This document shows positions 1,950 to 60,645 of a stretch of 64,000 nucleotides of DNA, one piece after another. This stretch comes from Eledone cirrhosa. Lineage: Eukaryota. The notes beneath the pieces are model-generated. The model searched no databases, was not told the DNA's origin, and saw only the letters and a program-made list of their open reading frames with translations. The translations under genes were made by a program, and so were the position numbers. Where the stretch lies: the NCBI GenBank assembly GCA_964016885.1, contig OZ024745.1, positions 130,634,001 through 130,698,000 on the forward strand, read 5' to 3'. Each line of letters starts with the position of its first letter. Positions within the stretch are counted from its first letter, which is position 1.

Positions 1950-2101
<152 letters not shown>

Positions 2102-2682
2102 GGAGAGAGAGAGAGAGAGAATGGGGAAAAGAGGGGGAGGGGGAAGAGAGACAGAGACAAAGAGAAAACGTAAAAGTGGGTATGATGAAGTCTACTGTTA
2201 TAGCGATTGTGTTGGTTTCTGGTGTTGGCAATGGCGACGCTGTTGACAATGGCGACGATGTCGTCATCACTTCGTTATATTTCTCGTATTTACAAGACCA
2301 CACGTGACCTATTGGGTCACGTTTACTACGAAATATTTTTTAAAAATCATGTTCACTTAAAAATAATGTTTAAATAATTAAAATATATAGATATGTATAT
2401 AAATGAAACTGGAAGACCCATATATATAGGTGTGTGTATGTATATATATAAATGTGTGAGTTTGTATACGTATATATATGTATGTGTGTGTATATATATA
2501 TATGTCATTGTCTGTGATCTATATACACTGATCATAGACACACACACACACATATACACACACACATATATATACTGTATATATATATATATATATATAC
2601 ACAACAACACCAACAGCTCTCTCTCTCTTCCATTCTCATTCTCTGTCTCCTCTCCTTCTCTCGATGTCTCTCTTTCAATCTA

Positions 2683-2763
<81 letters not shown>

Positions 2764-3387
2764 TCTCTCTGTTTATGAAGATACCTGGAAAAACCACGTA
2801 TCTCGGGAACCTGTGCTTCGATTTATGCGAAACTTGTTTTATTTCATTTGTATTCATTTTAGGGGCAACTTCCTTTCAAAGTATTTTCCAATTATGCGCC
2901 ATTTTGGCTGTATTACATTACAGACAAGCAAACAAGGAAGCAATCACACAATTTTAGTAATATAAATATTGAAGATGTGTAAAATTTGGCCAAAATACTT
3001 AAATGTATACAACATATCAATGCTTCCCCACCATAAATATGAGAATTTATCATGCTTACTAGTATCTTACTTAAATAAGTTTAGATGTTTTCTTCGTGGA
3101 TATCTTTACTTTTTACTGTATATTATTCTGTCAATTACTAAAAGCTTTGAAACGTTAGCTGATATTCAAATTGAAAAATGGTAATCTCAGTATGTTGCAG
3201 TAACTTTTTTAATCTATCCCCGTATTTTATATATATTTCATATTGTAGAGAATCATTTCTGCGTGGACAACTAGTAATTTTTTTTATTTTCCTATTATTG
3301 TTAAGTTCGGAAGTGTTTCTTAGACTTTCGTTCGAAAAAATTCAGTTCATCATCTATCGATTTCACATACAGCCACCCAGGATCTAT

Positions 3388-3545
<158 letters not shown>

Positions 3546-4972
3546 CATGTGTGCTGTGTGCATGTGTGCATGTGTGGGGGGTGATAGCGTGTGTATGTAT
3601 GTATGCATGTATATATATATATATAAAGCTAAGTATGTATATATATATTTATATATATACCTATATATATATATACCTATATATATATATATACCTATTC
3701 GCGTGTGTGCTTGTGTGTGTTTTGTACGGTTTGCATGTTTGCATGAACCCCTGTGTGCATACAAAGATGCTTAATCTGCGCAAAACTCTCTGGTGGACCT
3801 GAAAGAAAAACTGCACACAGTGAACCTATCTTACGTTTTCCTTTGCACTTGAAAATTTTCCTAGTGGTGTATCTATACAAAAGTTCTCTGGTAGCTTTCA
3901 CAGAACATATCGAAGGTCAGTTCTGTTTTAATATGTTTTTTATCTCAAAATATATTGTTTAACAAACATGGTTCTGTGCTTGCTGTGCTAAATCAGACTA
4001 GCCACCATCCTGAGAAACATTGAATTAAGTTCTCTTTTATTCATCTGCATTGAAGAAGCATGTTTTCTTCATTGCTTAAGGGTCTAACGAGAAGAGATCA
4101 TGTTGTATGTTCTATGATCTGATACTGAATTGGTTTTGTTTCGTTTGACCGTTTCTTTAATAGTTCCTGGTAGATATGAAAATAAACAAGAGAACATTCA
4201 ACGGCAACAGGATTAAACAACATACGCACAACTTTTTTATAGTGAGATATTGCTGCACACATTGTGGAGTAGAGATTTGGTGCCGAACATTAAAGATGAA
4301 TAAGAAATCGGGCAAATGAATGTACGAAGACTGACAATGCATATATATATCTTCTATTCGCCACAAATGTCCATTTTTAATCGATTTCATTCCTAACACA
4401 ATGCTATTACTAATCATTTGATTCATACAAATCATGCTTTATGCAGCTTCATGAGAGAGAACATTTATATATGTATGTGTGTGACTATTTGAGTGTCTGT
4501 GTGTCTGTGTGTATACATGCATGTGTGTGTGTGTGTATGCGTGCATGTATGCGTGCATGTATGCGTGCATGTTTTGTGCGTTTTTGTACGTGTGTGTGTG
4601 GTAATAGTGTGTTTTGATGAATTGGAAACGGCGTATGTTTAAGGCATTCTGGCACGAAAGGGATTAAATTAGTGAGAACCCTGTTTCACCAAGAAACAAG
4701 ACAAACCCAGCCGATACCTCTGATTAAGAGGGAAGGGTCTAATCTAGGCTATAGCTTTACCGGGTTTTCATGTACTCCCAACTATGTCTACTTTTTGTAT
4801 AAATACGTTTATTTTAGTATGGAAATATAAAAAGGCATTAGCCTTTTATTCTTAGTTTAGCGAATAATAAATGTAAGTTAACTTGATGAACAAACAAATC
4901 ATAAAGTAAACTGCAAATGTCTCGCACAAAGTGTATATATGTTGTAACTCACCAGTATTATATAATACAGGT

Positions 4973-12279: not shown

Positions 12280-13925
<1,646 letters not shown>

Positions 13926-13926
13926 A

Positions 13927-14530
13927 GAATAGAATAAAACGTAATTTCATTTCTCACTCTTAGTACGGCACTTACTTAAATGTAAGTATGTATGTATGTA
14001 TACGTACATACATATATGTATACAGACGTACAGTAGTATGTATATATATACATACATGCACACATATATATATGCACGTATCGGTGTACCGAACATTTAT
14101 TATAATGCTAGGTTTGTTTGTTTGTAAACAAACAAACAGCCCGAATTACGCCGTACAGTGTTTAAGCAACCACGTCACCTTTTTGTTCAACACTGACACA
14201 GGAACGATGTACTGGTTTCAAGCTTATTAGCTATCGTCAGCTTCGTATACCTTCCTGCCAGATGGTTGAACGTCTGAAAGTATATACTTTCCTTATGCAT
14301 AATAACGGCTGAGCAGCCTAATTTGCATATCGAGTGAGTTCAGTCGGTCGGACACACCGAAAACGATAAATGGAATAGAATGAAACGAAATTTCATTTCT
14401 CACTCTTAGTACGGTAAACCGATACGTGCATATATATATATATATATATGTGTGTCTGCATGTATGTATATATATATATACATACTACTGTACGTCTGTA
14501 TACATATATGTATGTACGTATAGATACATA
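13927..14530 (-). mobile_element. Family A hammerhead-bearing element: ~446-bp unit with terminal redundancy plus an inverted piece
   Basis: 13927-13968 is repeated directly at 14373-14414; 14412-14522 is the reverse complement of about 13998-14091; homologous to 56461-56783 and 35298-35395; TA tracts on both sides. Confidence 0.8.
14193..14261 (-). ncRNA. Minimal type-I hammerhead ribozyme motif (family A)
   Basis: Minus strand ACGAAG-CTGACGA-T-AGCT-AATA-AGCT-T-GAAA-CCAG-TA/CATCGT; stem I has one mismatch. Confidence 0.7.
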
Positions 14531-14558
14531 CATATTCATATATATATATATATATCTA

Positions 14559-19002: not shown

Positions 19003-19830
19003 CAAGGGGGTGCTGAAAAGATTCTAGCTTTGGGTAAAAGAAAGCAATTAAATTGGGTAAAAGGACCAATTAAAAGAAAATACAGGATGATCAGTTAATA
19101 GAAAATACAGGAGGATCAGTTAATAGAAAATACAGGAGGATCAATTAATAGAAAATACAGGAGGAACTGTTAAAAGAAAATACAGGGGGATCAGTTAATA
19201 GAAAATACAGGAGGATCAGTTAATAGAAAATACAGGAGGATCAGTTAATAGAAAATACAGGAGGATCAGTTAAAATAAAATATAGGAGGATCAGTTAAAA
19301 GAAAATATAGGAGGATCAGTTAAAAGAAAATACAGGAGAATCAGTTAATAGAAAATACAGGAGGATCAGTTAAAATAAAATATAGGAGGATCAGTTAAGA
19401 GAAAATACAGGAGGATCAGTTAATAGAAAATACAGGAGGATCAGTTAAGAGAAAATACAGGAGGATCAGTTAAGAGAAAATACAGGAGGATCAGTTAAGA
19501 GAAAATACAGGAGGATCAGTTAAGAGAAAATACAGGAGGATCAGTTAAGAGAAAATACAGGAGGATCAGTTAAAAGAAAATACAGGAGGATCAGTTAAGA
19601 GAAAATACAGGAGGATCAGTTAAAAGAAAATACAGGAGGATCAGTTAAGAGAAAATACAGGAGGATCAGTTAATAGAAAATACAGGAGGATCAGTTAATT
19701 ATGATTTTATTCAACATATTCCCCTCTCAGATTCACACACTTATTGCAGCGGTCCTACCTCCCCTGTAAAGGTAACAGTTTTACTCATTCATGGTACCCT
19801 TAAAGCCATGAACTTTTCTGCCCAACCTCG
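19003..19830 (+). mobile_element. Internally deleted mariner-like element containing a minisatellite
   Basis: TA|CAAGGGGGTGCTGAAAAGATTCTAGCTTT ... AAAGCCATGAACTTTTCTGCCCAACCTCG|TA: imperfect TIRs with TA TSD. Confidence 0.8.
19076..19698 (+). repeat. 25-bp minisatellite, about 25 copies
   Basis: Unit GAAAATACAGGAGGATCAGTTAA(T/G/A)A. Confidence 0.97.
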
Positions 19831-29779: not shown

Positions 29780-29867
<88 letters not shown>

Positions 29868-29872
<5 letters not shown>

Positions 29873-30069
29873 AGCGAGTAGGACCCCGACGGCTGAGCTC
29901 AAGCCGTTTCGACGGCTAATTCTGGACTATTTAGTCCAGAATTAGCCGTCGAAACGGCTTGAGCTCAGCCGTCGGGGTCCTACTCGTTCCTATTACCCAC
30001 TCTACTACCCTAAGTGTTGAGTACTTTGGTGCGTTATGGTCCATCTGGTTCCTTACCACATTTCCTTCG

Positions 30070-30120
<51 letters not shown>

Positions 30121-30322
30121 TATGACCCCGACGGCAGAGCTCAAGCCGTTTCGACGGCTATTTCTGGATTAAAAAAGAAATACCCGTCGAAATAGCTGTC
30201 AAAACGGCTTGATCTCTGCGGTCGGGGTCATACTTTTTCCTATTTTCCACTCTACCACCCTAAGTATTGAGTACTCTGGTGCGTTATGGTCCATCTGGTT
30301 CCTTACCACAATTCCTTTGTTA
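29868..30322 (+). mobile_element. Family F: two tandem TA-embedded fold-back elements carrying the 3' half of a hammerhead
   Basis: 126-bp near-perfect palindrome 29868-29993; second copy 30118-30322; shared tail TGGTGCGTTATGGTCCATCTGGTTCCTTACCACA; GAAA-CGGCT-TGAGCTC-AGCCG-TC at 29951-29973. Confidence 0.8.
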
Positions 30323-30554
30323 TATCTATCTATATATATATATATATAGTCAAGGAGATTGAAGAGAAAGTGACAGGATATGTTAGATTAATGTATGTAC
30401 GTTTTAAGCAAGGTGCAATAAATATCAGAGGCTGTTATGTATAGTTGCCTTCACTCGAACATAAAGCATTTGCTTTCTTAGAGAAAATTGTAAGAATAAA
30501 CATGGATATTATGATTTATCACCAAACTGATACAATTAGCTTCTTTTTACATAT

Positions 30555-31974: not shown

Positions 31975-32034
<60 letters not shown>

Positions 32035-32750
32035 GGTGGATTAGCAGTATCAGTAGAGGGTCTGACGCCATGATTTGCAGCATAGAGTTATGCCCCTTTA
32101 TGGTCTGAGTTCAAATCCCGCCGAGCTTGACTTTGCCTTTCATCCTTACGGAGATCGATAAAATAAAGTACCAGTAATTAACTGGTGTAATTGCTGGCCT
32201 TGTGCCTAAAGTAGAAACAATTAGTGGATTGGCTGTATCAGTAGAGGGTCGGACGCCATGCTTTGCAGCATAGAGTTACGGCCCATTTCCATTCTGAGTT
32301 CAAATCCCGCCGAGGTTAACTTTTCCTTTCATCCTTACGGGTTCGATAAAATAAAGTACCAGTAATGCACTGAGTAATTGCTGGCCTTGTGCCAAAAGTA
32401 GAAACAATTATTATTGGCAGTATCGATAGAGCGTCGTACAACATGCTTAGCGGCATAGAGTTAGAACTCTTTACGTCGTTAAAATAAAGTACCAGTAATG
32501 CACTGAGGTTTGATTTAATCGATTTTTTCTTCACCCAAAATTGTTGATCTTGTGCCTAGGTGGATTGGCTGTATCGGGAGAGGGTCGGACGCCATGCTTT
32601 GACGTATAGAGTTACGGCCCTTGCCATTCTGAGTTCAAATCCCGCCGAGGTTAACTTTGCTTTCATCCTTACGGGGTCGATAAAATAAAGTACCAGTAAT
32701 ACACTGGGTAATTTGCTGGCCTTGTGGCAAAAGTAGAAACAATTATTATT
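32035..32750 (+). mobile_element. Head-to-tail array of four SINE-M copies after an (ATT)n tract
   Basis: Copies at about 32035-32222, 32224-32412, 32415-32555 (degenerate) and 32559-32750. Confidence 0.85.
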
Positions 32751-34414: not shown

Positions 34415-34458
<44 letters not shown>

Positions 34459-34459
34459 A

Positions 34460-34690
34460 TAATAATAGATTTGAAGACTAAAATCCAAAGAGGGCTCGAT
34501 AAAGATAAATATATATCAAATATATAAGAACCGTAGAGCAAATATTTATTAAAATAACAGATTAAAGTTTAAGCAAAGAATCGCTGCTTTCACCCTTAAC
34601 GGGATCTTCTGAAACTGTTTCAGAAGATCCCGCTAAGGGTGAAAACACCGATTCTTTGCTTAAACTTTAATCTGTTATTTTAATAAATAT
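34460..34690. mobile_element. Family D element with 149-bp palindrome
   Basis: Palindrome 34542-34690 centred at 34616; arms and 34468-34492 are homologous to 59003-59078. Confidence 0.8.
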
Positions 34691-35178: not shown

Positions 35179-35395
<217 letters not shown>

Positions 35396-35456: not shown

Positions 35457-35517
35457 TATTCTATTATATATATTTCAAGGGTACCGAAACTTTGGTACGC
35501 CCTCATCAGATAAAATA
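35457..35517 (-). ncRNA. Minimal type-I hammerhead motif (family B)
   Basis: Minus strand TATTTTAT-CTGATGA-GGGCGTACC-AAAGTTTC-GGTACCCTT-GAAA-TATATA-TA/ATAGAATA. Confidence 0.65.
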
Positions 35518-54652: not shown

Positions 54653-55491
54653 TGTACTGTTATTATGGGTGGCATATGAAAAGACTTCAATATATATATA
54701 TATATATATATATTTCGTTTCTGAATTTGTTTAGCAAGATTCTTTATCTGAAAACGTGTGTTGAAACCGATATTGTTATACTTTGTGAGGGTCATGTTGC
54801 CAATAAGAAACACACGCACCAGCTGCTTTCACTTCAATTTATTATAAATTAAATTTATAAATTTAGGAATTTATAAATTTCCGGTTGGTTGGTTCCACAA
54901 CCAGACGATTGTTCATATATTGTCAAAGTTCTTTCGTCACACATTCTGTGACCTCTTCAGTGACTGGGGATTCTTTTCTTTTCTTTGTTTTTGTGCCTCT
55001 CCTTTGTTCTGTCCTACGCCATCTTGTTTTTGTGTGTGTTGTGTGCTTAGTTTGCGCATGTGTTACATCCGGGTGTCTGTGTGTGTTTATATTTGTTTAT
55101 TTATTTATCTGTTTATTTACATGTTACTGGTTGGTTGTTTGTTCTATGTGTGTATGTGTTTTCATTTTGTCCTTAATTGTAAGTTGTGATATTGCTATTC
55201 CATTCATGCTTTCTATTTAATTTTGAAGTGGTCACAGAATGTGTGACGAAAGAACTTTGACAATATATGAACAATCGTCTGGTTGTGGAACCAACCAACC
55301 AACCGGAAATTTATAAATTCCTAAATTTATAAATTTAATTTATAATAAATTGAAGTGAAAGCAACTGGTGCGTGTGTTTCTTATTGGCAACATGACCCTC
55401 ACAAAGTATAACAATATATATATATATATATATTGAACATTCTCGGAAGTCTTTTCATATGCCACCTATAATAACAGTACACCGCCATAAA
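54653..55491. mobile_element. Family E nested inverted-repeat element
   Basis: Inner arms 54770-54959 versus 55224-55417; outer arms 54653-54688 versus 55456-55491, beyond the TA tracts. Confidence 0.85.
54922..54964 (-). ncRNA. Minimal type-I hammerhead motif (family E)
   Basis: Minus strand GTCA-CTGAAGA-G-GTCACA-GAATG-TGTGAC-GAAA-GAAC-TT/TGAC; the copy in the opposite arm (55223-55261) has a mutated core TTGAAGT. Confidence 0.6.
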
Positions 55492-56388: not shown

Positions 56389-56460
<72 letters not shown>

Positions 56461-56462
<2 letters not shown>

Positions 56463-56783
56463 CTGGCAGGAAGGTATACGTTGCTGACGATAGCTAATAA
56501 GCTTGAAACTAGTACAGCGTTCCTTTGCCAGTGTTGAACAAACGAGCAACGATGGTTGCTGGACACTACGGCTTAATACGGGATGTTTGTTTACAAACAC
56601 ACCGAGCATTATAATAAATGTTCGGTGAATCCATACGTACATATATATATGTGTGCATGTATGTATATATATATACATACTACTGTACGTCTGTATACAT
56701 ATATGTATGTACGTGTACATACTTATATTTAAGTAACAGCCGTACTAAGAGTGGGAAATGAAATTTCGTTTCTTTTTTTCCGT
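56461..56783 (+). mobile_element. Family A hammerhead-bearing element
   Basis: Reverse-complement homology to 13927-14263; TA tracts on both sides. Confidence 0.82.
56463..56531 (+). ncRNA. Minimal type-I hammerhead ribozyme motif (family A, best preserved)
   Basis: CTGGCAGGAAGG-TAT-ACGTTG-CTGACGA-T-AGCT-AATA-AGCT-T-GAAA-CTAG-TA/CAGCGT-T-CCTTTGCCAG: complete core, palindromic stem III (ACTAGT), extended stem I. Confidence 0.8.
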
Positions 56784-57110
56784 TTATATATATATATATA
56801 AATCCCATCATATATCAAAAACAAATAAAAACCAAATGTTACATCTGTCTGAAGAGAACATGTCAAATTGTTATTATGCAATCGCTTTAACGTTTTCGAA
56901 ATGGGTATAACAATATTATATAATAAACAGAGGATGTACATTTAAAACGGTCTCACTTCTTTATAATATTGACACTCCGGTTGATACCTTATTGATAATA
57001 CTTTGAGGAATACAAATCGGAAAGTAATTTACGTCTGTTTGCGACCAAAGTCGGTGGATTATCTGATCAACCAACTTTCTTAAATTGAATAATGTATATA
57101 TACATATATA

Positions 57111-59002: not shown

Positions 59003-59085
59003 ATTTAAGCAAAGAATCGCTGCTTTCACCCTTAACGGGATCTTCTGAAATCCTCTTGGGATTTTAGTTTTCAAATTTATTAATA
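59003..59085 (-). mobile_element. Family D copy
   Basis: TTTAAGCAAAGAATCGCTGCTTTCACCCTTAACGGGATCTTCTGAAA is identical to 34568-34614. Confidence 0.8.
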
Positions 59086-59420: not shown

Positions 59421-60270
59421 TTTTTACCGGTTGCGCATTTCTAATGCTTTTCAAAAATAATTTTGAGATAGAGCGCTCGTGATGTTTGCATATATATATA
59501 TATAGGAGGTAAATAAATAGATCGGTGCGAGGGTTCCAATACGAAAGAGGGAAGGGAAGGGTAAAATAAGAAACAAAACAAGAAACAGTGAGGGGGACAG
59601 GGTGATAAAGTCAGCTGTGGAATAAAAGCTGGGTGTTAAATTATAAAGAAATAAATCGAACAATCACATGATAGACACAAAGAAATAAATGAGGCTGACA
59701 GAGTAAGAGTAAAAGGGAGTTTGAATAGATTTTATAGACAGAATCAATAAATAAGAATAAAAATAAAAATAAAAATAAAATAAAGTAGAACAAGGCGAAG
59801 GTCGGGGGTGGAGGTGTTAAGACACAAAGTAAATCGCAAACAATCTATTTTAGAAGTCTAACTGGAGGCCAAATGCTATTATTACATGTCAGTGATTGTC
59901 TCCAGAAATATACGCTCTCTGTCATGTTTCATTGGAATTGGCACGTGACGGTAGATGGAATTCTTAAGCAAACCCACTTTTCTTTACTCGTTCCCATAAA
60001 CACGACCACCACCCACCAAACTTCATCACCGCCCACACACCACCAACAACTACATACCATCACCACCCACACACCACCACCTGCTACACACCATCACCTC
60101 CCACACACCACCACCATCGACACTCGCTGTATCACAAACATAAAATAAAAAAAGGCCAAGAGTAACAACGAGAAATTCAATAACATTGCCATAAGATTAC
60201 AACAACTGCAATTACAACAACAATAATCAGCAAAAATAACATAACTTCGTAGTTCCAATAATACTTCCAT

Positions 60271-60645
60271 GGTTTGGCAGTATCGGTAGAGCGTCAGACA
60301 CCATGTTTTGCAGCATAGTTATGGCCCTTTGCGTTCTGAGTTCAAATCCGCCGAGGTTAACTTTGCATTTCATCCTTACGAGGTCGATGAAATAGAGTAC
60401 CAGTAATGCACTGGGGTAATCGCTGGCCTTGTGCGAAAAGTAGAAACTCATAGGGCGGTGGATTGGCAGTATCGGTAGAGGTTCAAATGTCATGCTTTGC
60501 ATCAAAGAGTTACGGCCCTTTATGGTCTGAGTTCAAATCCCGCTGAGGTTAACTTTGCCTTTCATCCTTACGGGGTCGATAAAATAAAGTATCAGTAATG
60601 CACTGGGGTAATTGCTGGCCTTGTGCCAAAAGTAGAAACAATTAT
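60271..60645 (+). mobile_element. Two tandem SINE-M copies
   Basis: About 60271-60447 and 60454-60645. Confidence 0.85.

Follow-up and report, generated by a model that had tools for sequence, protein, structure and literature searches.

Type I hammerhead carried by a 5'-truncated member of a likely non-LTR retrozyme family in Eledone cirrhosa

Close to the end of a 64,000-nucleotide stretch of the Eledone cirrhosa genome (hereafter the window), a run of (TA)n is followed by some seventy bases that can be drawn as a hammerhead ribozyme. The locus raises the question of whether these bases are a hammerhead maintained as a structure, what kind of element carries them and whether that element begins where the helix begins. 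In the reading we favour, to which we give a probability of roughly 0.85, the bases are a type I hammerhead and lie in a member of a non-coding tandem repeat (unit 410-540 bp) that has lost its 5' part; the repeat is likely a non-LTR retrozyme, which a Penelope-like enzyme likely copies into (TA)n. The features are collected in Table 1.

Table 1. Features of the hammerhead, of the copy that carries it and of related copies in the window
Feature	Position	Strand	Remarks
Type I hammerhead	56478-56520	+	core bases all present; weak Rfam HH9 alignment
Helix I	56478-56483 (ACGTTG) / 56515-56520 (CAGCGT)	+	
Core CTGACGA	56484-56490	+	
U·U (10.1-11.1)	56491/56504	+	stacked on three standard pairs of helix II
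Helix II	56492-56494 / 56501-56503	+	loop 2 is TAATAA
GAAA	56505-56508	+	
Two-pair helix III within palindrome ACTAGT	56508-56513	+	A17 is 56514
Predicted self-cleavage site	56514..56515	+	after GUA triplet; predicted from core consensus in the available part of PMC3088659
Helix I extension past internal loop 1	56463-56474 with 56522-56531	+	fold z -2.0; pair states, 108 insertions
Outer helix, 3' strand	56533-56539	+	partner strand lost in window copy by truncation
Fixed 3'-end site 1	56728	+	read through in window copy; 29/74 3' ends
Fixed 3'-end site 2	56787	+	59 bases past site 1; 26/74 3' ends; then (AT)n
(TA)n run, likely insertion target	56392..56460	.	
5'-truncated single-arm copy, subfamily A, ~422-bp unit	56461..56787	+	~95 unit bases absent
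Two-armed subfamily B insertion	13920..14534	-	minus arm ~14414-13920, plus arm ~14409-14534
Hammerhead of subfamily B insertion	14246-14204	-	two private mutations: helix I and helix III palindrome
Short 3' fragment of hammerhead unit	35280..35391	-	ends near site 2, before (AT)n

The motif was compared with the core consensus given in the available part of PMC3088659, which also served for predicting the cut site. C3 U4 G5 A6 N7 G8 A9, G12 A13 A14 A15.1, U16.1 and H17 are all present between 56484 and 56514, and helices I, II and III surround this core with helix I open-ended, as in the type I layout. The first-pass annotation had correctly read both strands of helix I, its extension, the (TA)n run directly 5' of the copy and the U·U that closes helix II, and its second helix, ACGAAG/CATCGT at 14.2 kb, was recovered on the minus strand. 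Pairing is kept in 96.9% of cells (28 pairs in 38 distinct rows), compared with 32-41% in slid controls. The one feature in which the motif departs from the consensus is the standard pair at 10.1-11.1, replaced by U·U in 119 of 122 copies. In a search with 166 bases, the Rfam model Hammerhead_HH9 (RF02275, clan CL00010) aligned end to end over the helices and core with 22 bits (E 0.0017); this is below its gathering score of 52, so the motif is not assigned to RF02275. Over the whole window, the Rfam matches listed (150 of 377) were microsatellite-driven, miRNA-type and all below threshold. The core pattern with U·U has 27,973 exact matches in the genome (3.0 Gb, 1,796 contigs) and its reversed control has none, which places the flagged motif beyond chance. 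On these grounds we regard it as a real type I hammerhead, with cleavage as a prediction.

The single flagged copy is largely ordinary, being one of about 28,000 in a known kind of non-coding repeat, and 39 other places in the genome match it with 96-99% identity over 180 bases. Among 60 loci picked by similarity, 47 pairs of same-strand neighbours are spaced 410-466 bases apart; once a position-ordered sample is included (66 loci in the first 21 Mb of contig C1), monomer length ranges from 410 to 538 bases (n=81). Up to seven units follow each other head to tail in one arm with no reading frame in between, and no credible reading frame was found in the repeat unit, whose GC content is 0.35-0.38. 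Monomers of three subfamilies (one each), folded as circles, are 67-71% paired with z-scores of -5.8 to -10.4, values inflated by self-complementary TA-rich stretches. Tandem units, lack of coding capacity, low GC and a highly self-paired monomer are the marks of non-LTR retrozymes; the window copy itself is a solo fragment, not tandem. All 17 pairs of opposite-strand neighbours are joined 5' to 5'. Units within one insertion differ by a median of 0.4%, also between its arms, and the nearest other insertion by 1.3%. Among four contig sets compared, contigs of three organisms carry the same subfamily variants. The repeat is likely a large and young non-LTR retrozyme family, for which we infer circularity and expression. 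A further copy of the hammerhead unit lies about 3.4 kb before the window (L127:6585-6673). Another locus (L117, ~2000-3800) holds an array alternating two unit types 4.3% apart, as would arise from a dimeric template or from a later two-unit duplication.

The metazoan non-LTR retrozymes (Cervera and de la Pena, 2020, PMC7229834; Li, Clavereau and Pollet, 2026, 10.64898/2026.07.22.740005; both available in part) resemble this family in their short tandem units with GC below 45% (here 35-38%), one type I hammerhead each, no protein, a highly paired predicted circle, thousands of copies and Penelope-like elements in the same genome. Unlike here, where the family is known from its sequence, expression, cleavage and circles have been shown for them. 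The unit of 410-540 bp is at or above the 150-450 bp given there, and the available parts of these papers contain no mention of two fixed 3' ends or of arms joined 5' to 5'. The closest single parallel is the axolotl HHR_Amex2 (PMC7229834, in part), which also combines a two-pair helix III with U·U at the base of helix II and coexists with a second retrozyme family; its host and sequence are different, and its helix III carries a tetraloop in place of the 2-base loop in a 6-base palindrome found here. According to the same source, the HHR_Amex2 monomer was cleaved to 22% in one hour and the dimer much better. No published cephalopod retrozyme was found among the matches listed, and the supplements of PMC7229834 and PMC4209133 may list related elements.

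The U·U at 10.1-11.1 is an already published, tolerated variant and is not new. Natural U10.1-U11.1 was reported to support more cleavage than other mismatches (Perreault et al., PMC3088659, in part), and HHR_Amex2 still cleaves with it (PMC7229834, in part). Two relatives of the repeat differ at this position. A further subfamily with 1,293 matches and ~88-90% identity to subfamilies A-C has mostly C·A there and U at position 17 (L182-L201, contig C1). A sister family with a 466-469-bp unit has G-C and 9,621 pattern matches (L164-L181, contig C1); it shares 65-70% identity over 120-250 bases, the same order of helices and ends at matching sites, forms arrays of ~30 units, has its own covariation in helix II and ends ~72-74 bases apart. 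As U·U is fixed and the further subfamily is mostly C·A, constraint on the pair appears to be relaxed here; together the U·U and C·A copies number some 29,000, about three times as many as those of the G-C sister.

The first-pass annotation had also described the U·U as common to its families C and D. One other U·U-closed family did appear in our scan of the window, but the labels C and D are undefined, and of the other two hammerhead families there, one has an extra base followed by a closing G-C (54960) and the other starts with G or A (35509, 57447). Hammerhead-like motifs that combine a long helix III with U·U at 10.1-11.1 and with CAGAAGA (U4-to-A) lie at 34611, 34621 and 59047, where fragments (34453-34690 and 59004-59050) of the terminal repeat of a young Penelope-type element, with a 713-codon frame elsewhere and ends 88 bases apart, are found. 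The motif at 54960 (-) is a minimal hammerhead in a two-armed terminal-repeat insertion of a Neptune-like element (54705-55417) with ends ~60 bases apart; further such ends are at 227-302 and 1895-1957. Those at 35509 and 57447 (-), also met at L160 and L163, belong to a third family, for which no parent element was found; its helix II is long and its helix III palindromic (ATATAT). At 29827-30348 lies an inverted-arm repeat, very common in the sampled loci, whose 3' half resembles a hammerhead (GAAA, long helix III); one of its ends is fixed and precedes (TA)n.

Covariation had originally been proposed from two copies, which cannot show it; two-sided subfamily states do exist at the pair concerned, 56481:56517. 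Among 108 insertions it is U·G in 53, A-U in 36, G·U in 20 and U·U in two, with three single cases (states can coexist in one insertion, 21 truncated copies out of 234 were left out, and the sample is weighted to subfamilies A and B). The two-sided change from U·G to A-U is upheld; the states are those of subfamilies and reflect few events. At 14.2 kb the broken pair is present as described but is no family trait. The usual helix I of subfamily B is ACGATG/CATCGT, and among 122 copies from the first 60 loci ACGATG occurs 38 times and ACGAAG twice; judging from these sequences, the mutations that break the pair and the palindrome at 14.2 kb are private to that copy.

The deeper alignment within the family shows 56481:56517 as the only stem I pair varying on both sides. 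Altogether three pairs changed on both sides, compared with 2.3 in shuffles (178/500), which is not significant (53 rows, 38 distinct). Leaving aside the U·U pair and 29 intermediate states, pairing is preserved in 9 of 13 pair states that at least four insertions share and in 10 of 61 found in a single insertion (Fisher p 3e-4). For the whole unit (32 monomers, 14 intermediate states left out), pairing is kept in 31/43 shared and 27/113 private states, figures biased upward because the structure was derived from the same alignment. An alignment that includes the sister family (26 rows, 15 distinct) has two-sided changes in 6 of 14 pairs, three of them in helix I and three in helix II; the core, loop 2 and helix III are unchanged. 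Slid controls gave 0-3 such pairs and shuffles 4.7 (62/500), so the count of pairs alone does not exceed shuffles. Compensatory change is indicated by the two-sided changes relative to the sister family together with the shared states that keep pairing. One common subfamily state, A·G at 56471:56525, breaks a pair of the extension in 41 insertions. Changes of C3 and of G8, in five insertions each, look like decay. Overall, covariation appears real at the family level but thin within the family; the hammerhead has apparently been under selection as a structure, and its reading as a conserved type I hammerhead is supported.

The 3' ends of the copies are much better defined. In the position-ordered sample, 55 of 74 lie within 6 bases of one of two sites spaced 59-61 bases apart, and (TA)n follows 49 of these 55 (59 of 73 in the similarity-picked set). 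Out of 32 two-armed pairs, 14 have at least one end off the fixed sites; in the remaining 18 both ends are at fixed sites and each pair uses one of each, two of these 18 being neighbouring similar insertions in L122. Two alternative 3' ends and an inverted, 5'-truncated arm are the end anatomy of Penelope-type insertions, and two 3' ends, one per arm, before (TA)n correspond to the "tail" signature of Penelope-like elements (PMC8557442, in part). Purified Penelope-type protein cleaves and extends both DNA strands, and two internal RNA start sites define the tail in vitro (PMC11167929, in part). As described in the available parts of these two papers, Penelope-like elements also share microsatellite targets with our repeat; they differ in that the unit here has no reading frame, its tail is 59-61 bases versus the 30-40 quoted, and its hammerhead is of canonical size, not the minimal form. 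The two fixed 3' ends offer genomic support for the proposed Penelope-like mobilisation of animal retrozymes, and exact start sites are now named for testing with purified enzyme.

Several features can be read directly from the genome: each tandem unit has one hammerhead and no protein gene, the pairing is conserved, 3' ends are fixed at two sites, 5' ends are scattered and arms are joined 5' to 5'. The following course of events would connect them. Tandem arrays would be transcribed, and neighbouring hammerheads would cut after A17, probably as dimers formed via the palindromic helix III; the monomer would probably be closed to a circle by ligation. With (TA)n cut by a Penelope-type endonuclease, the enzyme's reverse transcriptase would begin at two internal sites, using a different one at each DNA end, pass the ribozyme's cut site without stopping and then fall off at random. 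The window copy would have started at site 2 and stopped after ~327 bases, just past the helix base by chance. Since it has one hammerhead and lacks part of the unit, it is probably a dead-end copy.

Passage through the cut site is suggested by the 5' ends. By eye, among the first 100 matches listed in each case, no peak of copy starts was seen within 12 bases before (647 matches) or after (828 matches) the predicted cut, although a mild excess just downstream, up to about twofold, would be compatible with the two lists, whose filters differ. It seems, then, that copying is not halted at the site, as would be expected with a ligated circle or an uncut multimer for template; the lists of 5' ends around the cut give no sign that a linear cut monomer is the main template. 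Rare variants common to both arms (2 of 32) are too sparse to tell circle from multimer.

The same missing mark at the cut site, among the matches listed, is what would be expected if the hammerhead were a weakened passenger and the repeat moved as uncut multimeric transcripts with no need for the ribozyme. The most abundant subfamilies do carry a mismatch at 10.1-11.1 (U·U, C·A), and an anole element inserts in vitro without needing hammerhead cleavage (PMC11167929, in part). Against this, subfamily-level changes in the core are limited to N7 (across families also N17, 10.1 and 11.1), helices I and II have been rebuilt by paired changes between the sister families, and the axolotl retrozyme cleaves despite its U·U. 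We consider a dispensable ribozyme very improbable and retain the retrozyme reading, with a hammerhead that is kept as a structure.

Candidates for the copying enzyme are present in the flanks of unit copies, which carry frames that we take to be Penelope-type from motifs of such proteins (a GIY-YIG-like end, a YRDD-type centre and a cysteine linker) as well as from the anatomy of their ends; scanning these frames against Pfam and PDB gave nothing useful. In one family, of which there are many young copies, the frame has 713 codons and the ends lie 88 bases apart; two further families have the cysteine linker and ends 58-60 apart. All three end before (TA)n and have the same two-end pattern as the retrozyme. 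The linker fits the description of Neptune in the available part of PMC8557442. End spacing is a weak guide to the partner, because it is ~72-74 in the sister retrozyme and so follows the RNA. Given this shared end anatomy, and since Penelope-like elements carry type I hammerheads in their terminal repeats, the pLTRs (PMC4209133, in part), the unit might itself be the pLTR of an autonomous Penelope-like element and the copies its truncated ends. The arrays of head-to-tail units described above, with no reading frame between them, speak against this, as do the three families of flanking Penelope-type elements, which have their own, different terminal repeats and hammerheads; no sequence common to the unit and these three families was found beyond separate neighbouring insertions. 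We therefore judge the pLTR origin very improbable and continue to view the unit as a likely non-coding retrozyme that would borrow its enzyme.

We tentatively suggest, while thinking it rather unlikely to be right, that the lineage gave up the most conserved hammerhead pair to slow its own cutting, so that RNA circles last for Neptune-type Penelope copying from the two fixed start sites. If true, the genome would hold a natural series tying ribozyme speed to mobility. The matched natural hammerheads with G-C, C·A and U·U, which have the same helix III and loop 2, would permit a direct test of slower cleavage versus spread.

It remains to consider the 5' start of the window copy, which the first-pass annotation had placed exactly at the element boundary. 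Homology already begins at 56460/56461, 2-3 bases upstream of the helix base; intact units extend further in that direction, where they form seven further pairs with the outer 3' strand, each kept in 96-100% of distinct rows. The fold energy is -32.2 kcal/mol (z -4.3) for an intact copy and -21.9 (z -1.4) for the window copy. In the position-ordered sample with an intact core required, 5' ends are scattered from -440 to -30 relative to the cut (n=75); three fall at -55 to -51, all at inversion junctions, and 72 elsewhere. A pattern for copies whose homology breaks off no more than 7 bases upstream of the flagged start had 382 matches in the genome; among the first 100 listed, the counts by position, taken by eye, were about 8, 15, 6, 4 and 3, with no excess at the helix base. 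The idea that RNA structure sets the 5' boundary of the element, at the base of the extended stem I, is scarcely credible: one copy picked by similarity (L013) does start at the same base after (TA)n, and ~15 of those 100 start within one base of the boundary of the window copy, but neighbouring positions are similarly frequent, the upstream sequence of intact units pairs further and nearly all sampled 5' ends lie elsewhere. Since 5' ends are scattered and intact units run on upstream, the start at the helix base is best seen as a chance truncation in a (TA)n target with no special boundary, and the defined boundary of the window copy appears to be its 3' end at site 2.

A generic repeat search of the window was dominated by microsatellites. 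Two further repeats are present: a 25-bp minisatellite at 19062-19699 (25.5 copies, 94% matches), and a tandem ~190-bp SINE-like repeat at 32032-32464 and 60270-60639, which is also inserted at another locus (L126).
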